Source: a virus
Lineage: Duplodnaviria; Heunggongvirae; Uroviricota; Caudoviricetes
Direction: 5' to 3' (one strand)
DNA length: 18,456 bases
Virus record (IMG/VR): IMGVR_UViG_2713896795_000004
Location: 1 to 18,456 of that record
Positions 1 to 18,456 of this stretch are shown piece by piece. Every line of letters begins with the position of its first letter. Positions within the stretch are counted from its first letter, which is position 1. The notes under the pieces were generated by a model that saw nothing but the letters and a program-made list of their open reading frames with translations, was not told where the DNA came from and did not search any database. A program made the translations under genes and the position numbers.

Positions 1-147
1 TCAAACACTCGCAAGCTCGTATTTGATCTTAGAAATAGATAACAACCAAACTTTGCCGAATTCCTCGCTATCGCTACGGAATCCCGCAAGCGTTCTCCCT
101 TCGCTTTGCTCGATCCAGTAGGTGTAGTTCTCATTACTACTATTCAT
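1..147 (-). CDS. hypothetical small protein (48 aa), uncertain
   Basis: Manual reverse-strand translation: ATG (complement of 145..147) to TGA (complement of 1..3), MNSSNENYTYWIEQSEGRTLAGFRSDSEEFGKVWLLSISKIKYELASV. GAGG motif 7 nt upstream of the ATG. Lies in the GC-richer left flank and is below the ORF-track size cut-off. No recognisable family. Confidence 0.2.
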   Translation of the reverse strand: MNSSNENYTYWIEQSEGRTLAGFRSDSEEFGKVWLLSISKIKYELASV

Positions 148-240
148 AGTGATTCCTCAAATATTCTGGGAGTTGGACGCGGCGACGAAGTGGAACGGGG
201 CGGCGGTGTCAGTCAGTACCGAACAATAAGGAAAAAGAAA

Positions 241-582
241 ATGAAATACATACACTCAATAATAAAAGATTGGGGATACAGTCATAACTATCACGATGCC
301 GTACTAAATCACTTTCCTAATCAGGGAATGTACATCTTTGCAAGTGGTGAACTATCTTTCATGTATGACTACTTCCATCATAGGTGGACTGAAAGAACTC
401 ATACAGAAGAAATAACACGTAAACTACTTACAGAGTTCACGGAAGAAATGATCTTTCAGGAATGTACATTATATGATGCAGAATTAGTTCAGAAGGTGCA
501 AAGAGAAATACTCAAACACCACAAAGGCCAAATCACTTATATATGGATACCAAATGAGAAACCTAAAAATCACATACAATAA
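241..582 (+). CDS. hypothetical protein (113 aa)
   Basis: Track ORF 106..582 begins at a TTG in GC-richer flank. The first ATG (241) follows AAGGA with about 10-nt spacing and coincides with the switch to AT-rich composition, so the start is placed at 241. No recognisable motifs. Confidence 0.45.
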   Translation: MKYIHSIIKDWGYSHNYHDAVLNHFPNQGMYIFASGELSFMYDYFHHRWTERTHTEEITRKLLTEFTEEMIFQECTLYDAELVQKVQREILKHHKGQITYIWIPNEKPKNHIQ

Positions 583-973
583 CCCACGAGGCTTGATATT
601 CAATGACCGAGTATTAGCCAGGCGTTATGCAGTCAACCGTAAAGGCATATTACTAAATAATACTATCAAATACGATCATCCCCCTGATTACTATCTAGGA
701 CTGAATGAGGCGGAATACTTCCAATTGTCCGTAGTGATGGGTGATCTGGACGAAATAATATTCATGTCAGACTGTATAATCAATGGAGTAAAAATCATGC
801 AAATAGAAATACTAAACAATAACCCACTAAATTTTAGAGCACGTATCAATGGTGGACTAGACTTATATATTCACCATAAAGATGGAGTTGTCGCAAGTCA
901 GAGAATCCCCAATATAGAGGCTATAAAGAGCTACGTAGCTGGTGGAATCCATAAGGACGTACAACGAACATAG
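554..973 (+). CDS. hypothetical protein (139 aa)
   Basis: ATG-initiated ORF overlapping the previous gene by 29 nt, suggesting translational coupling in one operon. No recognisable family. Confidence 0.45.
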   Translation: MRNLKITYNNPRGLIFNDRVLARRYAVNRKGILLNNTIKYDHPPDYYLGLNEAEYFQLSVVMGDLDEIIFMSDCIINGVKIMQIEILNNNPLNFRARINGGLDLYIHHKDGVVASQRIPNIEAIKSYVAGGIHKDVQRT

Positions 974-1442
974 AAGAGATTAAACGCATTCTAAGGGGCG
1001 GGCAGGACGTTATAGAGGAACTATCAGAAGATGAGAAACTACAGAAGAGTATCAATAAACATACTGATTCAATCGCTAAAGCAGCGAAAGCAAAAAAAAC
1101 ACGCAAGCCAAAAGCATAAAACAAAGAAGCCTCTCTACTGGTGGTTGTCTCATGCTGTAAATCGCCTGACAAATATTCATAGCTATATTGAGCATAAGGC
1201 ACACGCACACATAAAAGCGTATCTAAGGTAATTGATCGTCCGAATAATTACGGTACTGAATTTGAGTTCTCGAAACCAACCAACTATATCGGGGGTAATT
1301 TATAGTTTCATAGTTGCAGTAGTAGTTGGTGTACTATATGATTCTTTAGACGTACAAATAAAAATCCATTGATGAAGTATTGCAGTTTCAAAAAGAGTCT
1401 CAACAACTAATTCCTCACGGTAAATAACAGGAATAAGCCACA

Positions 1443-1972
<530 letters not shown>

Positions 1973-2038
1973 TAATGGAACGGTATTAATATGTTATGTG
2001 AAAGTTTAATAGTGGATTATGACAGTACTAATTACTGA

Positions 2039-2215
<177 letters not shown>

Positions 2216-2504
2216 TAATATATGAGATACTTTGAAGACCAAAAATTCACAATGGCAGTTGCGGTAAATAAGATTATTAAGGGAGTTTATGAGATTAAGA
2301 TGTTGTCTTTATCGATATAGACTTAGCAGGTGAAGCAGGAGACAAGCTAGATATACCTCCAAAGGAGGCAGAAACTATTTAGCTACTAAATGATTTAGTA
2401 CAAATTATAAAATAATAAGAAGAGGCTAAATTTTACTATTAATATTAAAATTAACTTGTAATATTAATAGAGATTATTCATTTAAAATAGTGAGAAATAT
2501 TTAT

Positions 2505-2574
2505 TAATGAGTAATGAGTAATGAGTAATGAGTAATGAGTAATGAGTAATGAGTAATGAGTAATGAGTAATGAG
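2505..2574. repeat. perfect heptanucleotide tandem repeat (TAATGAG)x10
   Basis: Read directly: ten uninterrupted copies of TAATGAG, 70 bp, in the non-coding region about 130 bp downstream of the 3' end of the OLD-like gene. Confidence 0.95.
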
Positions 2575-2662
2575 TATATATAAATAATGGATGTAATAAA
2601 GTAGATGTCATAAATGAGTTTTCTCTATATAATGTATAATTATCAAATTATATTTATTGTAT

Positions 2663-2690
2663 TATATGCCAGTACTAGTACTGGCATATA
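2663..2690. repeat. perfect 28-bp palindrome; possible bidirectional terminator or protein-binding site
   Basis: tatatgccagtactagtactggcatata is its own reverse complement. It sits 13 bp beyond the stop codon of the minus-strand OLD-like gene, flanked by A/T-rich sequence. Confidence 0.5.
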
Positions 2691-2702
2691 TGAATTTAAT
2701 AA

Positions 2703-4549
<1,847 letters not shown>

Positions 4550-4974
4550 TTATTTAATACCATTACCAGAGAGAGAATAAAAATAATATCTTCAAAACTG
4601 TGACATATGTTGTTCTTTTATGTTGATTGTTACATGGTTGATGGTTTTGTGTGTTGACTAATAGTTTTTCAGTAATTTATTTGATTAATATGACATATGG
4701 AAAAGTCATTGCGTACTGGGGTAAATACATCTTATAGAGTATTAATATGGTTTATTACTGTGAATACTGTAATGGAGTAAATCATTTATTTTCATTAGTA
4801 ATAGGTACTCCCGAAAATCTGGGTGATCGTGGAGTTTTCGCCGCGAATTATAAAAAATATCTATGAGATTTTTTTATAAGAACACGCAATATCAATAGCT
4901 AAAAGTAATAAGCACCGAAACATATATAAAATACCAATCAATTGAAAATGAATAAAAAGTGAATAGGAAATCAC

Positions 4975-5544
4975 ATGGCAAAAAATAAAGACGATGGAAC
5001 CCGTTACACATATACGGAAATTGCCGAAAGATTTGGCGTAGAAATTAGTACCGCTTCGCGTATCTGGTCTGGAAAAGGACTGGATATTAACTGGCCTAAA
5101 AAATTAGTGGATCAGTGGTTACTAGCGAACGTAATCGAACCTATGCGTAATGGCGATGTAAAAGGAATGATTCATAAAGCTACACTACGCAAACTAGAAG
5201 CAGAAGCAGACCTGAAAGAATTAGAACTACGTCAACAATCGGGTGAACTAATTCCCGTTGCAGTAGTACAGCAAACATTATCACAATACTTCTATCAATT
5301 AAGACAAGTATTAAGAAGTATTCCCACATCAAGTTATGTTGAACTATTTGAATCACAGGACGCATTAGAATTAAAAATTAAATTACAGGATAAAATAGAC
5401 CGCCAGTTAGAAGAGATTGGCAGCTATGAATATGAGGGAACATATGAAGAACAACTATCAGAAGATGATGAAGGTACTAACGAGGGCGGCGAAATCAATC
5501 CTACCACCGAAGAAACAACTACCAGCGGAATGGGTAGAGAATAA
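4975..5544 (+). CDS. terminase small subunit (Nu1-like, N-terminal HTH), 189 aa
   Basis: N-terminal HTH-like segment YTYTEIAERFGVEISTASRIW, coiled-coil middle, acidic C-terminus. Sits immediately upstream of and overlapping the large terminase. AGGAAA before the ATG. Confidence 0.6.
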   Translation: MAKNKDDGTRYTYTEIAERFGVEISTASRIWSGKGLDINWPKKLVDQWLLANVIEPMRNGDVKGMIHKATLRKLEAEADLKELELRQQSGELIPVAVVQQTLSQYFYQLRQVLRSIPTSSYVELFESQDALELKIKLQDKIDRQLEEIGSYEYEGTYEEQLSEDDEGTNEGGEINPTTEETTTSGMGRE

Positions 5545-7345
5545 CCTAGTCTTCCCAGACGGCGAGCTACAGGGGCAAAGGGTCAAATTATTTGAGTTCC
5601 AAAAAAAGCCCTTGAATGACATAGTAAATCCCCGTATTCGTAAAGTGGTACTCATGAGTAGTGCTCAACTTCTCAAAACAACTGTACTTCAGAATAGTAT
5701 GTACTACTTCCTGGCAAATGATCCAAGTAACATGATCTTTGCGGGTGCAACTGGCGGTACTACAAGTAAGTTCCGTACTGGTAAATGGCAGGCAGTCATA
5801 GAGGCATGTTCGGTACTAAAGAATCTAGTAAGTAATAAGAATGATAAGAACTTTACTAATAACGATAAGACACAACAAAATTTAGATGGTACTTTTACTT
5901 ACTTTCTAACATTGGGTAGTAGTGCACAACTTCGCGGCCTGACAGCACCTCGCATATTTCTTGATGAAATATCCAACGTGGACGCGAGCGGGGATGAAGG
6001 CAACCCCCTGAAGCTAGCAGAACAGCGTACAAAGGCTTTTAGTAATCCCCTTATTATGTGTTGTTCTACTCCCCTTGATGAACATGACCTGATTACACAA
6101 CAGTACGAACAAAGTAATAAACAGAAGTTTTATGTACCGTGTCCACACTGTAACCACTCTCACGAATTAGTTTTTGAAAACGTTAAGTTTGACTGGAAGA
6201 TTATAGAAGGCGGTCGCCGCCGTATTCCTGATGCCGACACTGCAAGGCTAGAATGTCCAAAGTGTAGTAATGAAATCACAGAAGCCGAACGTGTACGAAT
6301 GATTCGTAAAGGAGAATGGATTGCAACAGCACCAGAGATTAAGGATATAGCTGGCTATCATGTCTCCCGCTTGTACTCTCCTATCAACTCTATCAAATCA
6401 ATTGTTGCCGACTTTGCCGAAGCACATTATACATTTGACCTGGCATCATTCTATAACAACGTATTAGGACTGCCATATATTGATAAAGAGAATAGCGAGC
6501 ATGACTTAGTATTATTAGAGAATCTAAGAGATAGTGAAATTGATATTGAAAATATACCAGATGATGTACTAGGGATCGTAATGGGCGTGGACCAGCAGCT
6601 TGATAGGTTGGAAATAAGCACACTAGGAGTAAGTGAAAAGAATCTATATGTACTTGATCACCGTAGTATCTACTCAATTGACTGTACTAAAATCGAAGCC
6701 CCAGCATGGAATAAGTTAACGGCCTTTGCAAATCATCCATTTAAAACACGTTCAGGTAAACCATTGAAGGTACTAGCCGGATTTGTCGATAGTTCAAACG
6801 GCAACGCAACCAGTACCGTGTACCGTTATTGCTCTAACTCTACTATCTTTAAACCTATCAAGGGTGGTACATCAAATACTAACCCACTATTCAAAGGTAG
6901 TACGGCTGGTGGTCACTCCCTGATTAACCTTAACCTTAACGTTAACTTAGGCAAGACTAACGTTAGACAGTTATTAAACCGTGCTGTATCAGATAATGAA
7001 AATAGTAAGGAAGTACAGATTCACTTTAGCCATTCAGTACCAGATGATTACTTTATTCAGGTTACATCAGAGAAGCGAGTAATAAAGGCTGGGGCGTGGG
7101 TATGGGTGAAGAAGATTAGTAGTGCACGTAATGAAACCTTAGACTGTTTAAACTATGCATTAATATGTTTCCAGTGGTATCTATCTAAGTTAGGTAGTCA
7201 ACCATACCGCCAGTTAAGGGAATATAACGCTAAACAAAAAGAGAAAGCAGGACTAAATAAAGAAGTAAATACAGAAGAAGCACCAACTAAGCCAACTCCT
7301 AAGCGAGTAATAAGGCCGCGTAAGGGTGGTGGTTTCTTTAAATAA
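5417..7345 (+). CDS. terminase large subunit, lambda GpA family
   Basis: Recalled similarity to lambda gpA: PAEWVENNLVFP...FEFQKKPLN versus lambda TAVEWADANYYLP...LPFQRAIMN; Cys/His cluster YVPCPHCNHSHEL...CPKC versus lambda HVACPHCGEE; GVDQQLDRLEI versus GIDSQLDRYEM. The track start at 5417 is TTG; in-frame ATGs at 5426, 5432, 5444 and 5465 are alternatives, so the start is uncertain and overlaps the terS 3' end. Confidence 0.85.
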   Translation: MAAMNMREHMKNNYQKMMKVLTRAAKSILPPKKQLPAEWVENNLVFPDGELQGQRVKLFEFQKKPLNDIVNPRIRKVVLMSSAQLLKTTVLQNSMYYFLANDPSNMIFAGATGGTTSKFRTGKWQAVIEACSVLKNLVSNKNDKNFTNNDKTQQNLDGTFTYFLTLGSSAQLRGLTAPRIFLDEISNVDASGDEGNPLKLAEQRTKAFSNPLIMCCSTPLDEHDLITQQYEQSNKQKFYVPCPHCNHSHELVFENVKFDWKIIEGGRRRIPDADTARLECPKCSNEITEAERVRMIRKGEWIATAPEIKDIAGYHVSRLYSPINSIKSIVADFAEAHYTFDLASFYNNVLGLPYIDKENSEHDLVLLENLRDSEIDIENIPDDVLGIVMGVDQQLDRLEISTLGVSEKNLYVLDHRSIYSIDCTKIEAPAWNKLTAFANHPFKTRSGKPLKVLAGFVDSSNGNATSTVYRYCSNSTIFKPIKGGTSNTNPLFKGSTAGGHSLINLNLNVNLGKTNVRQLLNRAVSDNENSKEVQIHFSHSVPDDYFIQVTSEKRVIKAGAWVWVKKISSARNETLDCLNYALICFQWYLSKLGSQPYRQLREYNAKQKEKAGLNKEVNTEEAPTKPTPKRVIRPRKGGGFFK

Positions 7346-7848: not shown

Positions 7849-9350
7849 TGTTCGGATGGAATAAAAAGAAAGTAGAAGAACCTAAACAAAAAGTTTTAGT
7901 ACAGAAGCCAGTGAAGCTAATGAAGAACAACCCTATGAAGCGTGCAATGTCTTCCCTGAATCTAGGATCTTCTAGTCCTGTTATCTCCTTTGGTTTCACG
8001 GGTGGTAATCAGGCAGGTAATATTAACGCCATCATTAACCGTACTCTACCTGTTATGGTTGCCGTGAGTCGTGAACTCTCGATTAAGAATGGTATTGTTA
8101 AGAAATATGTTTCTACTAACTCAGCAGGTGTAACAGGTGCGGATGGCCTATACATTCGTCCATGTACTCACTCTTCTGATAGTGAACAGGTTAACCAGTC
8201 AATCGATAAACAATTAGAAGATGCCTTCTATGCATGGGCGGAAGATCCTAAAGCCTTTTCACGTTGCGGTACTCTGGATATTAGTACCTTCCAACGTCTA
8301 GTAGAACGTACTCGTTCAGTAGATGGAGATTGTTTCATTCGTATTCACACTAAACCAGGTGAACTACCACAGGTTGAGATCATCGATTCAATGCGTATCT
8401 CTACCTATGAGAACCAGCTACTACCATCAGGTAACTATATTAGTAATGGTATCGAATTTGATATTAATACTAACCGTCCTGTAGCGTACTGGGTAACACG
8501 TTATAACCCTATCATGTATAACTATATGATTGGAGAACGTGAACGCGTACCAGCAGATGAAATTCTACACCTGTTTCAACAGGACTACCCAACGCAGCAA
8601 CGCGGGATACCTGATGTACATTCCGGTACTGAAAAGTTAAAAGAGCTAGAAGAGTTTATGTCAGCGGCAATTACTTCCCGTAAGGTTGCAGCGTCCGCAA
8701 TGGCATTTATCACTAATCCAGATAGTGACGATGTTCAGCTACTGACTGATGACAGTGTTTCGTACTATGATCAAGACTATCTAAATCCGGCTGCAATCGT
8801 AGAACTACAAGCAGGACAAGATATTAAAACAGTAAACCCAACTCAAACCACAGATGGAATTGATGAGTTTATTAATAACCAATTAATGATGATTGCAATG
8901 GGCTTGGATATTACAAAACAATCACTAACATCAGATACTAGTAATGCTTCATTCAGTGCAGCAAAACTGACTGATAAATTACAACAATCAACATTTAAAA
9001 GCCGCACTAATGCTTTAATTGTTTCGGTACTAAAACCTCTTTATATTGCATGGCTAAAATCTGCAATGCTAAATAGTAGTACGTTAAGCAATTTAAATTT
9101 TAGTGATTTTAATAAATTAACCCATGCACAATATGTACAGACTCGTCAAATCTCCCTTGATCCATTAAAAGACCTTCAAACCGAAGTATTAGCAATTGAT
9201 AACGGTTTAAAGAGTAAGGCAATGGTAATTTCAGAGATGGGATACGATCCTGTTATCGTCATGGAAGAGATAAAAAAGGAAAACAAGGAAAATGGAATTG
9301 AACCTGAACAAGAACCAGATGAGGGCGATCAATCTAACGCAGATCAATAA
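7848..9350 (+). CDS. portal protein (lambda gpB-like), 500 aa
   Basis: Canonical position after the large terminase, appropriate size, AGGAGA RBS. Weak recalled similarity to the lambda gpB region around ...NPAAIVELQAGQDIKTV...MIAMGLDITKQSL. Acidic C-terminal tail. Confidence 0.7.
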   Translation: MFGWNKKKVEEPKQKVLVQKPVKLMKNNPMKRAMSSLNLGSSSPVISFGFTGGNQAGNINAIINRTLPVMVAVSRELSIKNGIVKKYVSTNSAGVTGADGLYIRPCTHSSDSEQVNQSIDKQLEDAFYAWAEDPKAFSRCGTLDISTFQRLVERTRSVDGDCFIRIHTKPGELPQVEIIDSMRISTYENQLLPSGNYISNGIEFDINTNRPVAYWVTRYNPIMYNYMIGERERVPADEILHLFQQDYPTQQRGIPDVHSGTEKLKELEEFMSAAITSRKVAASAMAFITNPDSDDVQLLTDDSVSYYDQDYLNPAAIVELQAGQDIKTVNPTQTTDGIDEFINNQLMMIAMGLDITKQSLTSDTSNASFSAAKLTDKLQQSTFKSRTNALIVSVLKPLYIAWLKSAMLNSSTLSNLNFSDFNKLTHAQYVQTRQISLDPLKDLQTEVLAIDNGLKSKAMVISEMGYDPVIVMEEIKKENKENGIEPEQEPDEGDQSNADQ

Positions 9351-11154
9351 TGCAATTGATGAAGCTGATAGAACTGTAGAACTCTCCTTTGCCTCAGAAA
9401 TTCCAGTAGTACGCGACATTAAAGGGACTCTCTATAATGAGATCCTTTTATGCAGTCCTGAAAACGTAGACTTAAGCCGTCTTAATGACGGTGCACCTGT
9501 ACTAGTAGAACATGATGCAATGCGTCAAGTTGGTATAGTTGAGAATGCTCGCGTAGATATGGATAAAGTTTGCCGTGCTACTGTACGTTTTAGTGCACTT
9601 GGAACAGCAAATACTATCTTCGGTATGATCTTAGAAGGTATTCGCCCTAAAGTGTCCGTAGGTTATAACATCTTAGATTATCGTATTGATGGTAATAACC
9701 TAATTGTTTCAAAATGGGAACCCTATGAAATATCCAGTGTTTCGCAGCCAGCGGACAACTCAGTTGGGGTGGGAAGATCACTAAATAGTAATGAAGAAAT
9801 CACACTAGAGGATCTACCCAAAATGGAGCAAGAACAAAAAGAAGAACTAGTACAGGAAGTTGAAGTTATTAAGGAAGTACAGGAAGAAGAAGTACAAGCC
9901 GAAGTAATCGAAGAAGAAGTAGTAGTTCAGGAAGAATCAGTAGAAGTAGTAGAAGAACCGGAAGTAATTGAGGAAGTACAGGAAGTACAACCTGAATTAG
10001 TAGAAGAACGTTCTATTGCAATTACTGATATTCAAGAAAGCATAAATAAAGAAGTAGAAGCAAATCGTATTCGCGAACTTCAATCTATTTCTTTGGTACT
10101 AGGTGTTAGTACAGAAGAAGCAATTAACAACGGTGTAAGCGTAGAAGACTTTAAACGCTCACTAAATAAAGATAATAAATCAATTGATAAGGATATCAAA
10201 AAAATGGAAAAGAAATCTCTAATTAACGAAGGTCTACGTAGTCTAAAAGGTGAAACTCATGATCTAGAAACCTTCGAAAAAGGTGCACGCGGTTATAATG
10301 CAGACCTAAACGCTATGGTACGTTCTACCGCTGATACTACTTCTACTGTAACCGCAGCAGGTCTAGTAAAAGAAGAACTAGCAGACGCGTATATTCGTCA
10401 ACTACTCGCAGCTACTGTACTGGGCCAACTAGATGTAACTGTTTTTGGTGGCCTAGCGGGACGCGGCAATTTCTCTATCCCACGTGCTAAAGGTATGAAC
10501 CCAGCAGCTAAGTTTTACAATGAAGATGAAGCAGTATCCGACGGCTTCGAAACCTTCGATAAGATCACTCTAAAGCCTCGCATGTTCGCAGCAGGTATCA
10601 AGATCACTAAAGCAATGCTACTAAGCAACGCAGCTACCGAACGTTATGTTACCGACGAGCTATTACGCCAATGTTCTAACGGTCTAGAGTCCGCAGTATT
10701 TGCACAAATCGCTACTACTGTACCAGTACAGCAAACCGCTGTATCCGGTCAAGTATCCGAAGCAGACGTACAGAAAGCTATCGAAGCTATCTCCGCGAAA
10801 AACGTTGATATCAATCGTTGTGTTGCTATCGTGCATCCTTCTATGCTCGCTAAACTACGTCAAACCGCGGTATTGAATAACACCGCAGCAGTTGCAATGG
10901 TAGCTGGTCATCGTTATGACATGTGGCTAAACGACGAAGTACGCGTAATTGAATCTACTTTCGTAGCAGCAGATACTATTCTAATTGGTGACTTCTCTGA
11001 ACTAATTTTCGCTAACTGGAACGAAGGTCAAGAACTAGATTTTGATGATACTACTTACCGTGCAGCACAAACTATCGCTATCAGAAGTTTTCAGTACCTC
11101 GACGTAGCTATTGCACACGAAGAAGGATTTGTACTACTACAACTAAAACCATAA
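9292..11154 (+). CDS. fused prohead protease / acidic scaffold-like linker / HK97-fold major capsid protein (620 aa)
   Basis: N-terminal domain with candidate catalytic His in LVEHD (His74, nt 9511..9513) and Ser-containing segments. Acidic E/V/Q-rich repeat linker (aa 178-240). C-terminal domain with HK97-type MCP pattern: VAIVHPSMLAKL...MWLNDEVRVIESTFVAADTILIGDFSE compared with recalled HK97 gp5 IVLNPRDWHNI...MWGLPVVPT...FTVGGFD. Start may instead be the ATG at 9319. Confidence 0.7.
   Translation: MELNLNKNQMRAINLTQINNAIDEADRTVELSFASEIPVVRDIKGTLYNEILLCSPENVDLSRLNDGAPVLVEHDAMRQVGIVENARVDMDKVCRATVRFSALGTANTIFGMILEGIRPKVSVGYNILDYRIDGNNLIVSKWEPYEISSVSQPADNSVGVGRSLNSNEEITLEDLPKMEQEQKEELVQEVEVIKEVQEEEVQAEVIEEEVVVQEESVEVVEEPEVIEEVQEVQPELVEERSIAITDIQESINKEVEANRIRELQSISLVLGVSTEEAINNGVSVEDFKRSLNKDNKSIDKDIKKMEKKSLINEGLRSLKGETHDLETFEKGARGYNADLNAMVRSTADTTSTVTAAGLVKEELADAYIRQLLAATVLGQLDVTVFGGLAGRGNFSIPRAKGMNPAAKFYNEDEAVSDGFETFDKITLKPRMFAAGIKITKAMLLSNAATERYVTDELLRQCSNGLESAVFAQIATTVPVQQTAVSGQVSEADVQKAIEAISAKNVDINRCVAIVHPSMLAKLRQTAVLNNTAAVAMVAGHRYDMWLNDEVRVIESTFVAADTILIGDFSELIFANWNEGQELDFDDTTYRAAQTIAIRSFQYLDVAIAHEEGFVLLQLKP
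9823..10011. repeat. low-complexity acidic coding repeat (GAAGAA/GTAGAA-rich) inside the capsid ORF
   Basis: Translates to MEQEQKEELVQEVEVIKEVQEEEVQAEVIEEEVVVQEESVEVVEEPEVIEEVQEVQPELVEE; the DNA is built from imperfect gaagta/gaagaa units. Confidence 0.7.
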
Positions 11155-11935: not shown

Positions 11936-12841
11936 CTATATTTCCAGACACCTGTTATCACTTAACCCATTACTGGCCCGCTGCCGTAGATATTCCCGTG
12001 GCGAGCGATAACCCAGTGCACTATGCGGATGCCATTCGTTATAATGCTCGAACGCCTCTGCAAGGTTCTTTGCTGCCGTTAACCCGTCTGGTTTGGGCAT
12101 GATACTGATGTAATCACGCTTTATCGTTTTCACGAAGCTCTCTGCTATGCCGTTACTCTCCGGACTCCGCACCGCCGTGTTCTTCGGTTCAAGTCCCAAC
12201 ATCCGGGCGAACTGGCGTGTTTCATTAGCCCGGTAGCATGAACCATTATCCGTCAGCCACTCCACTGGAGATGTCGGAAGCTCGCTGCCGAAGCGGCGTT
12301 CCACCGCTCCCAGCATGACGTCCTGTACTGTTTCACTGTCGAAGCCGCCCGTAGTGACCGCCCAGTGCAGTGCCTCACGGTCACAGCAGTCCAGCGCGAA
12401 CGTGACTCGCAGTTTTTCTCCGTTATCACAGCGGAACTCGAACCCGTCAGAGCACCATCGTTGATTGCTTTCTTTCACGGCCACTTTGCCAGTATGTGCC
12501 CGTTTCGATGGCGGTACAGCGGTTTTTCGCTCAAGCAACAGCGCATTCTGGCGCATGATCCGGTAAACACGTTTGGCATTGATAGCAGGCATACCATCAA
12601 GTTCGGCCTGTCTGCGAAGCAGCGCCCATACCCGACGATAACCATACGTGGGCAGCTCTCCGATAACATGGTGTATACGGAGAAGCACATCCGTATCATC
12701 TGAGTGACGGCTGCAGCGACCATCTTTCCAGTCATCGGTTCGTCTGAGAATGACGTGCAACTGCGCACGCGACACCCGGAGACAACGGCTGACTAAGCTT
12801 ACTCCCCATCCCCGGGCAATAAGGGCGCGTGCGCTATCCAC
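11936..12841 (-). CDS. insD: IS2 transposase OrfB (InsD), DDE integrase-like catalytic domain, 301 aa
   Basis: Matches recalled InsD sequence. Overlaps insC in the -1 frame at the AAAAAAG slippery site, so the InsCD fusion would arise by programmed frameshift. GTG start. Confidence 0.9.
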
Positions 12842-13164
12842 TTTTTTGCACGCCCATATTCAACGGCTTCTTTAAGGAGTTCATTTTCCATCGTTTTTTT
12901 GCCGAGCAGGCGCTGAAGTTCTTTAATCTGCTTCATGGCAGCAGCAAGTTCAGAGGCAGGAACGACCTGTTCTCCTGCGGCCACAGCAGTAAGACTTCCC
13001 TCCTGGTATTGCTTGCGCCATAGAAATAACTGGCTGGCTGCCACACCGTGTTGCCGGGCAACAAGGGAGACCGTCATTCCCGGTTCAAAGCTCTGCTGAA
13101 CAATAGCGATCTTTTCCTGTGTAGTACGCCGTCTGCGTTTCTCCGGTCCTAAGACATCAATCAT
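12799..13164 (-). CDS. insC: IS2 transposase OrfA (InsC), HTH DNA-binding protein, 121 aa
   Basis: Translation from the ATG at 13164 matches recalled InsC ([56 protein letters not shown]...). The track ORF extends further 5' to an upstream alternative start. Confidence 0.9.
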
Positions 13165-13256
13165 CTGTTCTCCAATGACTAGTCTAAAAACTAGTATTAA
13201 GACTATCACTTATTTAAGTGATATTGGTTGTCTGGAGATTCAGGGGGCCAGTCTAG

Positions 13257-13784
13257 AAAGGTAAATGCATCCCACGAGATTTAAAGGTTAACGAAACAAA
13301 CGCTGACTATCTTTTCCGTAAGTTCGGTGAACTTGAATCAAAACTCAACGAGCAGCGTGAGTATTACGAGGGCGTTATCTCGGATGGGAGTAAGCGTATT
13401 GCTGAACTGGAGAAAAGCGAAGAGCAACTCATCAACGAGCGTGACCATGCTGAGTCTGCTTTAGCTGATATGTACTTTGCAGCAACCGGTAACAGGCCGG
13501 AGTGGAGCAACTGGTTCGGCTTTTCAGATGCTGTCGATGCCGTGGTTGACAGAATAGCTGATTTAGAAGCTAAACAGCCATCGCCGGTAGTGCCGGATAA
13601 TGCATCAGGGTCGCTTGCTTATGCTTACAAAGAGCTTACGCCTGAGATTATGCGCGGTCATATCGCTGTATTCGAGCGATATGGAATAGCCCCAAACGAT
13701 AGCATTACCACAATTCAGGCACTGCGAATCGCGCTGGATGGTATAGAGCGGAGCAACGCCATGCTTCAGGGGAAAGGAGAGTGA
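13257..13784 (+). pseudogene. N-terminally truncated coiled-coil protein of the lambdoid early-accessory region (possibly Ea22-like), cut by IS2
   Basis: Reading frame is open from the first base after IS2 (stop TAG lies inside the IS2 end at 13254..13256) through 13784, with no start codon near the IS boundary. Coiled-coil-like LESKLNEQREYYEGVISDGSKRIAELEKSEEQLINE. The Ea22 assignment is from memory and weak. Confidence 0.45.
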
Positions 13785-13785
13785 T

Positions 13786-14301
13786 ATGGCGTTAACACAC
13801 AGCGAACTCTGTCAGATTGCGTACAAGTTCCTTAAGCGCAACGGGTTCAAGGTTTGTTTTCATGACCGCTTTATAGCTGTAACCAGTACCGGAGAACAGC
13901 CAGATGCTATGGGATTCAGAAATTCAGCATCATGCCTGATAGAGGCGAAGTGTTCTCGTGCTGACTTGTTGGCAGATAGAAAAAAGCGTTTTCGTAAAAA
14001 TCCGTCTCTTGGAATGGGCGACTGGCGATTCTTTATTAGTGAGCCGGGGATTATTTCAATTGAGGATTTACCACCTGGCTGGGGATTACTTCACGTTGTT
14101 AACGGAAGAGTACGGAAAGTACATGGGTGGCCAAAGGGCAATTGCTGTTGGGGTAATCCTGACGATAAGCCATTTACTGGAAATAAGCAGGTTGAATGCG
14201 ATTACATGTTATCTGCATTAAGGCGCATGGAGTTGAGAGGGCACCTTAATGAAATATATGACGGTGTAATTGTTAATAAGAAAGAAGGAAACGCGGCATG
14301 A
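13786..14301 (+). CDS. hypothetical protein with PD-(D/E)xK-like nuclease motif (171 aa)
   Basis: AAAGGAGAG RBS, ATG 1 nt after the previous stop. Motif ...EQPDAMGF...(12 aa)...LIEAKCSRADL resembles the PD...(D/E)xK core of restriction-endonuclease-fold proteins. Family not assigned. Confidence 0.5.
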   Translation: MALTHSELCQIAYKFLKRNGFKVCFHDRFIAVTSTGEQPDAMGFRNSASCLIEAKCSRADLLADRKKRFRKNPSLGMGDWRFFISEPGIISIEDLPPGWGLLHVVNGRVRKVHGWPKGNCCWGNPDDKPFTGNKQVECDYMLSALRRMELRGHLNEIYDGVIVNKKEGNAA

Positions 14302-15137
14302 CCACTATTACCAAAGAGCGACTGCTGACAATCAAGCAGTGGCGCGAAACATACGGACCTGGTAGCAACGTTGTACTGCCAGCAGAAGAAGCGGAAGAAC
14401 TGGCACGAATTGCTCTGGCATCGCTGGAAGCAAAACCAATAGGTGCTTTCCACATTGCAGAACAGCAGGTCGATGGCACAAGTGACTACATCAAGGATGG
14501 GGAGTGGCCTATTGATAACGGGATAATTGAAGTATACGCCGCTCCGCCAGTGCCGGTAGTACCTGGGGAAATTGCTGATGATTTAATGGAGAAATTACCG
14601 AAAAGTGATGCATGGGCTAATGGGTTTCGTGGTGGCTGGAACGCCTGCCGCGCAGTCATGCTTCAGTCCGGAAACTTTCGGAAAATCCCGGAAGCGTCAA
14701 CCAGCTCTCCGGTAACTCCGCCTCTTTTGCCTGGTGGTTTCACCATTGAGGATGCGAAGGAGTTACATGAAGACCTGGTTCGCAGCCACATAAGCCAGGC
14801 TTTAAGTGGCGAAAAGATGAAAAAGAAAGATCGCGAGGCTGATTTGCGCTGGATTCATGGCGTAATAGTTCAGGCTGCGTGGTTTGTAAAGGCATCACTG
14901 GAGCAGAATGCACTATCGGGCAACTCTCCGGTAACTCCGGATAGTTGGATAAGCTGTAGTGAGCGAATGCCGGAAGAAACGGGTGACATTATTGTTGTTT
15001 CGGATGGCATTGTAATGTCAGGGATTTCTTATTCTCGTCGTGACGGGTTCTATATGGCCGCATTGGAGTACGACGACGACGAACCAATTGACGGTGTAAC
15101 CCACTGGATGCCGCTGCCAGAACCGCCGCAGGGGTGA
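14298..15137 (+). CDS. phage protein with C-terminal DUF551-like domain (279 aa)
   Basis: ATGA start/stop overlap with the previous gene. C-terminal SERMPEE...VTHWMPLPEPP matches the recalled DUF551 signature (ER[ML]PE ... W-x-PLP-x-PP) common in lambdoid early-region accessory genes. Confidence 0.55.
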   Translation: MTTITKERLLTIKQWRETYGPGSNVVLPAEEAEELARIALASLEAKPIGAFHIAEQQVDGTSDYIKDGEWPIDNGIIEVYAAPPVPVVPGEIADDLMEKLPKSDAWANGFRGGWNACRAVMLQSGNFRKIPEASTSSPVTPPLLPGGFTIEDAKELHEDLVRSHISQALSGEKMKKKDREADLRWIHGVIVQAAWFVKASLEQNALSGNSPVTPDSWISCSERMPEETGDIIVVSDGIVMSGISYSRRDGFYMAALEYDDDEPIDGVTHWMPLPEPPQG

Positions 15138-15203
15138 AATGATGCTTGGCCTGAAGTATTTTATGTAATTGGTATTGCTATATTTTTATCTGGGGATAAA
15201 CGA

Positions 15204-15446
15204 ATGTTCTCTCTGATTCAACGTGGTCAGATATACACCGATAGCGCTGGCTATCCAGTAAAAATCATTCGTAGTACTGATCACTCAGTATTCTTCAAGA
15301 GGATGGATGGCTATCCTGGAAGAGTGTGCATCAGAAAATTCAATAATTTATTCGAACACATTGATCACAGAGAATATCACCAGATCCTGGCTGAAACAGA
15401 GCAGGAGAACCATCTGAAAAAATTACGTGCCATGCAAAGGAGATAA
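15204..15446 (+). CDS. hypothetical lambdoid early-region protein (80 aa)
   Basis: ATG ORF in the position occupied by ea-type genes in lambda; no motif evidence. Confidence 0.45.
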   Translation: MFSLIQRGQIYTDSAGYPVKIIRSTDHSVFFKRMDGYPGRVCIRKFNNLFEHIDHREYHQILAETEQENHLKKLRAMQRR

Positions 15447-15526
15447 ACCGGTAAAGGTGTTCGCGATAAAGGTGAATATCGGCAATGAATAACAATCCTC
15501 GAACTCGCGGGGATTTCTTTTATCTG

Positions 15527-15553
15527 AACTCGCTACGGCGAGTTTTGTTTTAT
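15527..15553 (+). terminator. putative intrinsic terminator
   Basis: 7-bp stem AACTCGC / GCGAGTT with 4-nt loop TACG, followed by TTGTTTTAT. Confidence 0.35.
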
Positions 15554-15564
15554 GGAGATGATAA

Positions 15565-15732
15565 ATGCACTTCCGAGTCACAGGTGAATGGAATGGAGAG
15601 CCATTCAACAGAGTTATCGAGGCAGAGAACATCAACGACTGCTATGACCACTGGATGCTGTGGGCGCAGATAGCACATGCAGACGTAACCAATATTCGAA
15701 TTGAAGAACTGAAAGAACACCAATCCGCCTGA
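15565..15732 (+). CDS. small hypothetical protein (55 aa), same size and spacing as the small ORF just upstream of xis in phage lambda
   Basis: Manual translation MHFRVTGEWNGEPFNRVIEAENINDCYDHWMLWAQIAHADVTNIRIEELKEHQSA. GGAGA RBS 7 nt before the ATG; ends 39 nt before xis. Below the ORF-track size cut-off. Confidence 0.45.
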   Translation: MHFRVTGEWNGEPFNRVIEAENINDCYDHWMLWAQIAHADVTNIRIEELKEHQSA

Positions 15733-15747
15733 TGGCGGCTTTTTCTT
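15725..15747 (+). terminator. putative intrinsic terminator overlapping the stop of the 55-aa ORF
   Basis: CCGCC-TGAT-GGCGG hairpin followed by CTTTTTCTT. Confidence 0.35.
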
Positions 15748-15771
15748 GCGTGTAATTGCGGAGACTTTGCG

Positions 15772-15990
15772 ATGTACTTGACACTTCAGGAGTGGAACGC
15801 ACGCCAGCGACGCCCAAGAAGCCTTGAAACAGTTCGTCGATGGGTGCGCGAATGCAGGATATTCCCTCCTCCGGTTAAGGATGGAAGAGAGTATCTGTTC
15901 CACGAATCAGCGGTAAAGGTTGACTTAAATCGACCAGTAACAGGTAGCCTTTTGAAGAGGATCAGAAATGGGAAGAAGGCGAAGTCATGA
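15772..15990 (+). CDS. xis: excisionase Xis (lambda type), 72 aa
   Basis: MYLTLQEWNARQRRPRSLETVRRWVRECRIFPPPVKDGREYLFHESAVKVDLNRPVTGSLLKRIRNGKKAKS matches recalled lambda Xis. Overlaps the int start as in lambda. Confidence 0.95.
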   Translation: MYLTLQEWNARQRRPRSLETVRRWVRECRIFPPPVKDGREYLFHESAVKVDLNRPVTGSLLKRIRNGKKAKS

Positions 15991-17038
15991 GCGCCGGGAT
16001 TTACCCCCTAACCTTTATATAAGAAACAATGGATATTACTGCTACAGGGACCCAAGGACGGGTAAAGAGTTTGGATTAGGCCGAGACAGGAGGATAGCAA
16101 TCACTGAAGCTATACAGGCCAACATTGAGTTATTTTCAGGACACAAACACAAGCCTCTGACAGCGAGAATCAACAGTGATAATTCTGTTACGTTACATTC
16201 ATGGCTTGATCGCTACGAAAAAATCCTCGCCAGCAGAGGAATCAAGCAGAAGACACTCATAAATTACATGAGCAAAATTAAAGCAATAAGGAGGGGTCTG
16301 CCTGATGTTTCACTTGAAGACATCACCACAAAAGAAATTGCGGCAATGCTCAATGGATACATAGACGAGGGCAAGGCGGCGTCAGCCAAGTTAATCAGAT
16401 CAACACTGAGCGATGCATTCCGAGAGGCAATAGCTGAAGGCCATATAACAACAAACCCGGTCGCTGCCACTCGCGCAGCAAAATCAGAGGTAAGGAGATC
16501 AAGACTTACGGCTGACGAATACCTGAAAATTTATCAAGCAGCAGAATCATCACCATGTTGGCTCAGACTTGCAATGGAACTGGCTGTTGTTACCGGGCAG
16601 CGAGTTGGTGATTTATGCGAAATGAAGTGGTCTGATATCGTAGATGGATATCTTTATGTCGAGCAAAGCAAAACAGGCGTAAAAATTGCCATCCCTACAA
16701 CATTGCATGTTGATGCTCTCGGGATATCAATGAAGGAAACACTTGGTAAATGCAAAGAGATTCTTGGCGGAGAAACCATAATTGCATCTACTCGTCGTGA
16801 ACCGCTTTCATCCGGCACAGTATCAAGGTATTTTATGCGCGCACGAAAAGCATCAGGTCTTTCCTTCGAAGGGGATCCGCCAACCTTTCACGAGTTGCGC
16901 AGTTTGTCTGCAAGACTCTATGAGAAGCAGATAAGCGATAAGTTTGCTCAACATCTTCTCGGGCATAAGTCGGACACCATGGCATCACAGTATCGTGATG
17001 ACAGAGGCAGGGAGTGGGACAAAATTGAAATCAAATAA
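15968..17038 (+). CDS. int: tyrosine integrase Int (lambda type), 356 aa
   Basis: Near-identical to recalled lambda Int over its whole length (MGRRRSHERRDLPPNLYIRNNGYYCYRDPRTGKEFGLGRDRR ... HELRSLSARLYEKQISDKFAQHLLGHKSDTMASQYRDDRGREWDKIEIK). Catalytic R...H-x-x-R...Y context present. Confidence 0.97.
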   Translation: MGRRRSHERRDLPPNLYIRNNGYYCYRDPRTGKEFGLGRDRRIAITEAIQANIELFSGHKHKPLTARINSDNSVTLHSWLDRYEKILASRGIKQKTLINYMSKIKAIRRGLPDVSLEDITTKEIAAMLNGYIDEGKAASAKLIRSTLSDAFREAIAEGHITTNPVAATRAAKSEVRRSRLTADEYLKIYQAAESSPCWLRLAMELAVVTGQRVGDLCEMKWSDIVDGYLYVEQSKTGVKIAIPTTLHVDALGISMKETLGKCKEILGGETIIASTRREPLSSGTVSRYFMRARKASGLSFEGDPPTFHELRSLSARLYEKQISDKFAQHLLGHKSDTMASQYRDDRGREWDKIEIK

Positions 17039-17133
17039 TGATTTTATTTTGACTGATAGTGACCTGTTCGTTGCAACAAATTGATAAGCAATGCTTTTTT
17101 ATAATGCCAACTTAGTATAAAAAAGCAGGCTTC
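17039..17133. other. attL: lambda P' arm plus 15-bp core (reverse complement of GCTTTTTTATACTAA at 17112..17126) joined to the bacterial B arm
   Basis: Sequence TTTTATTTTGACTGATAGTGACCTGTTCGTTGCAACAAATTGATAAGCAATGCTTTTTTATAATGCCAACTTAGTATAAAAAAGCAGGCTTCA matches the recalled lambda attL/P' arm, with the core directly followed by host sequence leading into ybhC. Confidence 0.9.
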
Positions 17134-17172: not shown

Positions 17173-18456
17173 GTGAACACATTTTCAGTTTCCCGTCTGG
17201 CGCTGGCATTGGCTTTTGGCGTGACGCTGACCGCCTGTAGCTCAACACCGCCCGATCAACGTCCTTCTGATCAAACCGCGCCTGGTACCTCTTCTCGCCC
17301 GATTCTGTCGGCAAAAGAAGCGCAGAATTTCGATGCTCAACACTATTTTGCATCCCTGACACCAGGTGCGGCAGCGTGGAATCCTTCCCCGATTACCCTG
17401 CCTGCGCAACCTGACTTTGTTGTCGGCCCGGCGGGTACTCAAGGTGTAACGCATACCACGATTCAGGCGGCGGTAGATGCGGCAATTATCAAGCGTACCA
17501 ACAAGCGCCAGTATATTGCCGTGATGCCTGGTGAGTATCAGGGAACGGTGTATGTCCCTGCCGCTCCGGGTGGAATTACTCTATACGGTACAGGTGAAAA
17601 ACCGATTGATGTGAAGATTGGGCTTTCCCTTGATGGTGGCATGAGCCCTGCCGACTGGCGTCACGACGTCAACCCGCGCGGCAAATATATGCCAAGTAAA
17701 CCGGCGTGGTATATGTACGATAGCTGCCAGAGTAAACGCAGCGACAGTATCGGTGTTCTCTGCTCTGCGGTCTTCTGGTCACAAAACAATGGCCTGCAAC
17801 TGCAAAACCTGACCATCGAAAACACGCTGGGCGATAGCGTAGATGCGGGTAACCATCCGGCGGTGGCACTGCGTACTGATGGCGACAAAGTGCAGATCAA
17901 TAACGTCAACATTCTCGGTCGTCAGAACACCTTCTTTGTCACCAACAGCGGTGTGCAGAACCGTCTGGAAACGAATCGCCAGCCGCGTACGCTGGTGACC
18001 AACAGCTATATTGAAGGGGATGTGGATATCGTTTCTGGTCGCGGCGCAGTGGTGTTCGATAACACCGAATTCCGCGTGGTGAACTCCCGTACCCAGCAAG
18101 AAGCGTATGTGTTTGCACCGGCTACGCTGTCCAACATTTACTACGGTTTCCTCGCCGTAAACAGCCGTTTCAATGCTTCCGGTGATGGCGTGGCGCAACT
18201 GGGCCGCTCGCTGGATGTTGATGCCAATACCAACGGTCAGGTAGTGATCCGTGATAGCGCCATCAACGAAGGTTTTAACACGGCGAAACCGTGGGCCGAT
18301 GCGGTGATTTCCAATCGTCCATTCGCGGGTAACACCGGCAGCGTTGATGATAACGACGAAGTACAGCGTAATCTGAATGACACTAACTACAACCGCATGT
18401 GGGAATACAATAACCGCGGCGTGGGTAGCAAAGTGGTTGCAGAGGCGAAGAAGTAG
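17173..18456 (+). CDS. ybhC: YbhC, pectinesterase-fold outer-membrane lipoprotein (putative acyl-CoA thioesterase), 427 aa, complete
   Basis: GTG start; lipobox LTAC in MNTFSVSRLALALAFGVTLTACSS; sequence matches recalled E. coli YbhC. Known chromosomal neighbour of attB-lambda. Composition is host-like. Confidence 0.9.
   Translation: MNTFSVSRLALALAFGVTLTACSSTPPDQRPSDQTAPGTSSRPILSAKEAQNFDAQHYFASLTPGAAAWNPSPITLPAQPDFVVGPAGTQGVTHTTIQAAVDAAIIKRTNKRQYIAVMPGEYQGTVYVPAAPGGITLYGTGEKPIDVKIGLSLDGGMSPADWRHDVNPRGKYMPSKPAWYMYDSCQSKRSDSIGVLCSAVFWSQNNGLQLQNLTIENTLGDSVDAGNHPAVALRTDGDKVQINNVNILGRQNTFFVTNSGVQNRLETNRQPRTLVTNSYIEGDVDIVSGRGAVVFDNTEFRVVNSRTQQEAYVFAPATLSNIYYGFLAVNSRFNASGDGVAQLGRSLDVDANTNGQVVIRDSAINEGFNTAKPWADAVISNRPFAGNTGSVDDNDEVQRNLNDTNYNRMWEYNNRGVGSKVVAEAKK

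Follow-up and report, generated by a model that had tools for sequence, protein, structure and literature searches.

The intergenic region 3' of an OLD-family nuclease gene in an E. coli prophage contains a hypervariable heptanucleotide VNTR with the unit TAATGAG. On the comparative evidence set out below, from which its neutrality is argued, the array is best read as a neutral, slippage-driven, non-coding VNTR in a prophage spacer and not as a regulatory switch, and we put the probability of this reading at about three in four. The window referred to throughout is the whole stretch of DNA that was analysed, 18,456 nucleotides long.

Tandem Repeats Finder (TRF) describes positions 2505-2576 as (TAATGAG)x10.3, with a period of 7, 100% matches, no indels and a score of 144, the second-best tandem array of the window scoring 54. 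The units are thus short, perfect and arranged head to tail, as in other VNTRs. Direct reading gives ten full TAATGAG units at 2505-2574 followed by a trailing TA, and bears out both the coordinates and the purity of the ten perfect copies that the original prediction had placed in the 3' flank of the defence gene. TAATGAG occurs 13 times in the window, ten of these being contiguous, compared with 3.4 ± 1.7 occurrences in 200 dinucleotide-preserving shuffles, and the array is therefore not a product of chance. The 10-copy array is also present in the assembly from which the window derives, E. coli GCA_001077955.1 (contig LFKC01000009.1). It lies between convergent units, 127 bp from the OLD stop codon, with a 28-bp palindrome in between. 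The features of the window are as follows.

1443..1820, plus strand: last intact gene of the upstream plus-strand unit, 125 aa (from the open reading frame list; no family match)
1820..2077, plus strand: truncated DNA-methyltransferase-like remnant (51-aa ORF at 1820-1975, with further homology beyond it)
2109..2218, plus strand: what is left of a hypothetical gene for 94 aa (WP_089578772.1), which the EC28-type phage has in intact form
2436..2470: AT-only inverted repeat, 34 bp to the left of the array, with 15-nt arms (repeat finder) and a 12-bp RNA stem
2505..2576: perfect heptanucleotide VNTR (TRF), (TAATGAG)x10.3 on the plus strand and (CTCATTA)n on the OLD-sense strand
2605-2633, plus strand: sigma-70-like consensus match, ATGTCA-17-TATAAT, 10 of 12 positions, the best in the 3.7 kb scanned
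2611 to 2584, minus strand: sigma-70-like consensus match, ATGACA-16-CATTAT, 9 of 12 positions, back to back with the plus-strand match
2663..2690: 28-bp perfect palindrome, TATATGCCAGTACT/AGTACTGGCATATA, an inverted repeat (100% complementary) between the OLD stop codon and the array
2703..4523, minus strand: standalone OLD-family ATPase-TOPRIM nuclease, 606 aa, convergent with the upstream plus-strand genes
4975: small terminase subunit, in the phage module to the right of OLD
5417-7345: large terminase subunit, followed by a head-tail joining protein and a portal protein
9292-11154: capsid-family protein, followed by a head-tail attachment protein
11936-13209, minus strand: IS3-family element (orfA, HTH_Tnp_1, 12799-13209; orfB, rve, 11936-12841), 53-55% GC
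17173-18456: pectinesterase-family host gene, adjoining the end of the lambda-type region at about 17126

Positions 1 to about 11,900 form an AT-rich prophage segment (30-42% GC) with small plus-strand genes. The 125-aa protein at 1443-1820 has no match in Pfam or PHROG, and members of its cluster occur in many Escherichia assemblies. The gene following it is preserved only as a remnant, which matches PHROG 3820 'DNA methyltransferase' over profile positions 179-222 of 255 only; its matches in E. coli are annotated as class I SAM-dependent methyltransferase, and relatives of the phage that lack OLD have an intact 153-aa gene in its place. The remnant of the 94-aa gene is similarly reduced. Positions 2109-2514 match the EC28-type loci (L001 and L016, described below) at 73% nucleotide identity, and only a 29-aa ORF remains in the window. 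Furthermore, a segment of 470 bp (1905-2375) is deleted in most window-type relatives, the junction 1904|2376 being found in two of them (L008 and L029). The gene remnants and the deletion polymorphism point to a decaying, dispensable spacer as the surroundings of the array.

The AT-only hairpin at 2436-2470 has a predicted folding energy of -8.1 kcal/mol (z = -2.9) in the window, and its EC28-type counterpart -4.2 kcal/mol (z = -1.7). The EC28-type hairpin (L001, approximately 5934-5963) occupies the same place with a different stem sequence and a conserved AAATTAACTT loop. The difference in the stems may represent compensatory change in what is a weak structure.

The OLD protein has an N-terminal ATPase and a C-terminal TOPRIM domain (Pfam AAA_15, AAA_21 and OLD-like_TOPRIM), and its top PADLOC match is 'Old' (E=1.5e-74). 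No UvrD/GajB-like ORF is adjacent, which marks it as a standalone OLD. The slot that the gene occupies lies directly before the small terminase gene. In a further E. coli phage (L002) it is filled by a RipA-family gene and a hypothetical gene, while the relatives without OLD carry 153-, 73- and 127-aa genes there and no array. By comparison of these sequences, the slot upstream of terS appears to be an exchangeable hotspot for cargo or defence genes.

The large terminase next to the OLD cassette varies among relatives, with calls of 546, 459+167, 252+284, 484, 561 and 346 aa, and is in three pieces in EC28 (calls taken from seven relatives and one EC28-type locus). Decay seems to be under way in many members of this prophage family, with OLD remaining intact.

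At the other end of the AT-rich segment, the IS3-family element lies exactly where the AT-rich head module, which ends with the head-tail attachment gene and lacks tail genes, meets a lambda-like ea/xis/int module. The latter (13252-17126) shares 97.8% identity with lambda, contains ea22-like, Xis and Int genes, and was the only part of the window to be matched when the whole window was searched by megablast against phage GenBank records. Presumably the adjoining pectinesterase-family gene is ybhC, which neighbours the attachment site of lambda. The int gene shares its strand with the head genes of the AT-rich phage, an arrangement not seen in lambda. The prophage looks like an IS-mediated chimera or deletion product.

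The protein index lists linked OLD and 125-aa proteins in 213 and 291 blocks, respectively. Loci were fetched by means of proteins identical or nearly identical to OLD and to the 125-aa protein, together with one viral contig found by the repeat itself, and an orthologous array was resolved between the same anchor sequences on both sides in 23 assemblies. The number of units, as read from the assemblies (some of which may be one strain deposited twice, L008 and L030 being identical), is 2 in one assembly, 3 in four, 4 in three, 5 in three, 8 in three, 9 in three, 10, 11 and 12 in one each, and 17 in three. There are thus ten alleles, apparently with a gap at 6-7 units, giving a Nei diversity of approximately 0.92 (our own arithmetic on the 23 allele counts). 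Length changes by whole 7-bp steps at the orthologous site, the spacing from gene to gene differing by exact multiples of 7.

The array also changes much faster than point substitution accumulates: over the 2,300-nt flank on the OLD side, five pairs of loci show 0 SNPs and yet carry 2 and 3, 17 and 9, 5 and 4, 4 and 3, and 17 and 12 units, respectively. Both of these features are characteristic of a VNTR. Variant units (CAATGAG, and once AAATGAG) occupy fixed ends of the array and follow the flank phylogeny, the CAATGAG variants being at the OLD-proximal end and stable within clades, and it is the pure TAATGAG run that varies in length. Arrays of 8-17 pure units are found in about half of the isolates. 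The suggestion that the repeat is a substrate for slipped-strand mispairing and would be polymorphic in length is upheld by the ten alleles of 2-17 units in 23 assemblies and by their rapid change. The comparison of isolates that was proposed along with it, with an invariant copy number as the outcome that would count against it, shows a number that varies.

A diverged prophage in yegD of E. coli EC28 and of six other complete genomes, and one metagenome contig, contain the same OLD cassette, and allow the origin of the array to be traced. The cassette is common to both lineages, window positions 2563-4846 being 92.5% identical to the EC28 type. Outside the shared cassette (2563-4851), the window and the EC28-type phage have in common only three patches of 65-82% identity, one of which is 2109-2514. 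At the aligned position of the array, the EC28-type cassette has one degenerate unit, ACATGAG. The array therefore grew at its present site out of one heptamer, and did so in one lineage.

The window-type flank was found in none of 5,426 complete RefSeq E. coli genomes, where the only matches were to the EC28-type cassette (seven genomes) and to fragments of the methyltransferase. A BLAST search of positions 1900-2760 against phage GenBank records, run in a mode for distant matches, gave none, and a 20-mer from the palindrome had no match in species-representative genomes. The same 20-mer had two matches in metagenomes, one in an EC28-type contig and one in a contig ending 30 nt from the array. 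In the other OLD homologues of viral contigs (62-86% amino-acid identity), the 3' flank is unrelated and an array is absent, and the repeat is therefore not a general feature of OLD.

The EC28-type cassette also indicates which parts of the region are constrained. The OLD coding sequences of the window and EC28 share 94.7% of their nucleotides and 96% of their amino acids, with pS of 0.183, an identity of 82% at synonymous sites, and dN/dS of 0.087. Since one of the two copies compared has a single unit beside it, this ratio marks OLD as a functional gene under selection, whether or not the array is there. Identity to the EC28 type amounts to 72% in the left flank (2380-2504) and to 82% in the right flank (2577-2662), the latter being equal to synonymous sites. 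By contrast, the palindrome through the stop codon (2663-2702) is 97.5% identical, compared with 82% at neutral sites. This difference in identity implies that the constrained 3' end of the OLD unit is the palindrome, and that the array is outside it, in neutrally evolving DNA.

The palindrome is predicted to form a hairpin of -16.1 kcal/mol (z = -5.1), and both lineages give values between -16 and -17 kcal/mol (z between -5 and -7). The palindrome lacks a canonical U-tract, and a terminator scan did not pick it up. It is probably a 3' stem-loop or a bidirectional terminator of the convergent units, or may instead be a protein site. Some short-read contigs (L053, L052) end 16-36 nt past the OLD stop codon, at or just before the palindrome.

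We propose that a single TAATGAG-like heptamer gave rise to the array by growth in place through replication slippage (slipped-strand mispairing), and that slippage adds and removes whole units of the pure TAATGAG run to produce the alleles of 2-17 units. Loops above about 4 nt are poorly recognised by mismatch repair. Loops of 7 nt would thus be expected to escape MutS-dependent repair, and a perfect heptamer array would be intrinsically unstable in E. coli. A change in length would alter only a spacer of 14-119 bp beyond the palindrome at the 3' end of OLD, and would be selectively neutral or nearly so. The observations that speak against neutrality are the persistence of the long, pure arrays in about half of the isolates, the 10-of-12 sigma-70-like match 29 bp from the array, the minus-strand match, whose transcript would start at the edge of the array, and the G-free, unstructured RNA of the array on the OLD-sense strand.

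Regulatory explanations, taken together, are unlikely. The one that survives best, itself improbable, is that the array is a tunable regulatory spacer, in which the copy number shifts the distance and helical phase, or the 5' leader, of an adjacent promoter, and so grades expression in the manner of a contingency locus. The array is certainly hypermutable, the two promoter matches are close by (the minus-strand match has a predicted start at about 2577 and reads into the array), and there is a precedent in the 7-bp repeats of the hmwA promoters of Haemophilus influenzae, where more repeats generally give less transcript (PMC2424069). However, neither putative promoter has an intact gene downstream: the plus-strand match is followed only by the palindrome and antisense OLD, and the minus-strand match only by gene remnants and the antisense of the upstream genes. 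The number of promoter-like sites in the scanned region is 10, compared with 21 ± 4.4 in shuffles, and is thus below expectation. Alignment shows that the -10 of the minus-strand match is not conserved in the EC28 type, and the divergence of the segment is at the neutral level. Short alleles of 2-3 units are frequent, and in the EC28 type OLD remains under purifying selection beside just one unit. The position of the array is also unlike that of a contingency locus, where the repeat is in an ORF, a promoter or a 5' leader; here it is 3' of both convergent units.

It is worth adding that the plus strand has a 32-aa hydrophobic ORF across the palindrome (2614-2712), with no Shine-Dalgarno sequence. 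In EC28 its ATG and frame are kept over a 9-nt in-frame indel, with an earlier stop (23 aa, our own reading). This ORF is probably a chance occurrence in AT-rich DNA.

Nor do known RNA families offer a role for the array. A search of positions 1-5600 against Rfam at E<=1 gave no match, and a search for tRNA and tmRNA genes found none. The repeat also differs from the ToxI-like arrays of type III toxin-antitoxin systems, in which tandem units of about 36 nt precede, in the same orientation, the gene for the toxin endoribonuclease; the present unit has 7 nt, is downstream of the convergent OLD gene, and has no Rfam match.

The proposal that copy number might tune a nearby promoter, small RNA or transcript end consequently finds no support here. 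The array is outside the conserved palindrome, in neutrally diverging DNA, a single degenerate unit accompanies an OLD gene under purifying selection in the EC28-type phage, promoter matches are fewer than in shuffles, and Rfam has no match.

A second possibility is that the OLD-sense RNA of the array forms a Rho-loading (rut-like) or insulating trailer past the palindrome, where termination would shield the upstream plus-strand genes from antisense transcription, and where more units would make a longer rut site. The composition is what such a site would have, a rut region being C-rich, G-poor and unstructured over a length of about 70-80 nt past a stop codon: the array RNA has no G and 20 C in 72 nt (28% C), is fully unpaired in the predicted MFE structure, and ranks at the 99.9th percentile for C minus G when all 78-nt windows from the two strands of the window are compared. 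In the 327 nt downstream of the OLD stop codon there are 49 C and 16 G. This match is weak, since the composition is a by-product of the repeat unit and not independent evidence, and the surrounding trailer is already richer in C than in G without the array. The EC28-type cassette and the alleles of 2-3 units manage without a long array. Moreover, YC dimers recur every 7 nt in the array, while rut predictors use a YC spacing of roughly 11-13 nt. A G-free, unstructured array of 70 nt in the OLD-sense RNA could, on the modelled structure, affect Rho or RNA decay, but the chance that it functions as a trailer of this kind is small.

Smaller again is the likelihood that the array is a contingency locus of the prophage, with slippage acting on the 3' end of OLD through a change in antisense transcription, in the loading of Rho or in read-through. 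If it were, lysogens would be heterogeneous in the level of OLD or in the expression of the neighbouring phage unit, which could serve as bet-hedging between defence and autotoxicity. Should a regulatory reading of any kind be true, E. coli would offer here a rare example of phase variation driven by an SSR, and one tied to an anti-phage defence gene. Elsewhere, the phase variation known for defence systems is, to our knowledge, mainly that of restriction-modification in other genera.

That the array binds protein or acts like iterons, or that it belongs to a minus-strand gene for a small, phase-variable peptide, is a very faint prospect. The array is certainly a regular series of identical sites. 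However, its contiguous head-to-tail units of 7 bp range in number from 1 to 17, and there is no replication initiator gene or origin context, its neighbours being OLD, gene remnants and the small terminase subunit. Typical iterons have a length of about 17-22 bp and a nearly fixed number, and adjoin the gene for a replication initiator. The idea of an iteron-like or protein-binding array, which had been raised for this repeat, thus fares no better than that of tuning, given the 7-bp units and a number that falls to 1-2.

With regard to coding, it had been stated that the repeat has stops in every frame and is therefore not coding. This is correct for the plus strand, where TAA and TGA stops fall in all frames, and for the conclusion that the array is in effect non-coding. 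It does not hold for the minus strand, on which (CTCATTA)n is open in all three frames. There, a hydrophobic ORF crosses the array (2611 to 2504), limited by flanking stops to 35 aa in the window, with a C-terminus that changes with n mod 3. It would have 14-61 aa for n = 1-18, the repeat encoding LLITHYS, but a Shine-Dalgarno sequence is absent, and none of the three frames stays open for more than 27 nt past the array. A phase-variable protein from the array was rejected on this last ground.

Finally, an assembly artefact, either in the array or in its copy-number variation, is scarcely credible: short-read contigs often break inside the array (eight such contigs) and one scaffold (L065) has an N gap there, but arrays of 14-119 bp are shorter than typical reads, five multi-megabase contigs, of a size that points to long reads, carry 17 (CP053045.1), 5 (CP057354.1), 3 (UFZU01000002.1), 8 (a 4.87-Mb contig) and 17 units (a 4.53-Mb contig), the same 9-unit allele is found in independent databases (L008 and L030), and the pattern of variant units tracks the flank phylogeny.

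The TAATGAG unit is found as a repeat in other genomes. In representative genomes there are more than 120 loci with at least four copies, mostly in Symploca, Nostoc, Calothrix, Mastigocoleus and Bacteroidota, and also in Okeania; none of those among the matches listed is enterobacterial. Several arrays occur per contig in places, for example eight matches in Mastigocoleus testarum L108. Arrays of TAATGAG are also present in cyanophage-like viral contigs that have several different heptamer arrays. Three copies are found in 13 viral contigs, compared with 4 and 8 for two composition-matched control heptamers; the frequencies are of the same order, and a special status for the TAATGAG unit was rejected. 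In the literature searched, no paper has two or more tandem TAATGAG units, and the matches to single units are unrelated papers from other fields.

In a Mu-like phage (36% GC; L013 and L014), inverted TAATGAG arrays lie on either side of two ORFs, one of 165 aa that is small-terminase-like and one of 511 aa that matches nothing in Pfam. The arrays are at 6250-6298 and 8417-8458 in L013, and at 697-710, 4849-4911 and 7037-7078 in L014. These arrays pair with degenerate copies on the opposite strand to give long hairpins, and one is in a convergent gap beside a gene of the 23S-rRNA-IVP family. A cargo cassette bracketed by arrays in this way was considered for the present locus and rejected, there being no second array in the window. 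The Mu-like and cyanophage-like contigs have nothing but the repeat in common with the window.

Read as a neutral VNTR, the locus shows the birth of a microsatellite, from one unit in one phage lineage to as many as 17 in another, inside a horizontally exchanged OLD cassette. With about ten alleles in 23 genomes, it is potentially a high-resolution marker for typing strains that carry this prophage and for following outbreaks. Short-read assemblies can moreover be expected to break into separate contigs at this array.

Three known systems can be compared with it. The classic STRR units of filamentous cyanobacteria are heptamers, and, like the arrays of Bacteroidota, they resemble the present array in being tandem heptamers in non-coding DNA. 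They differ in that those genomes have many dispersed arrays of several unit types, whereas here there is a single local array in the window, in an enterobacterial prophage of E. coli, which arose locally from one unit. STRR fingerprinting has been used for typing Nostoc (PMC5088731).

The repeats of the hmw1A and hmw2A promoters of nontypeable Haemophilus influenzae are likewise an intergenic, hypervariable heptanucleotide array produced by slippage, with 9-28 copies (PMC2424069; PMC8262952), and their effect is a graded phase variation. However, they are in a promoter region, upstream of the gene that they control, while the present array is downstream of both neighbouring units and past the palindrome.

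The closest precedent is VNTR-36 (Vhec7) of the MLVA scheme for E. coli O157, a non-coding 7-bp repeat on plasmid pO157 with 3-15 repeats, 13 alleles and a diversity of 0.87 (PMC3321953). Both are non-coding 7-bp units on a mobile element of E. coli, and the range is similar to the 2-17 units, ten alleles and diversity of about 0.92 found here. The two differ in their carrier (a plasmid as opposed to a prophage), in the sequence of the unit and in the host lineages, and only the present array has an OLD defence gene as its neighbour. VNTR-36 is used as a neutral typing marker, and the array described here is usable in the same way.
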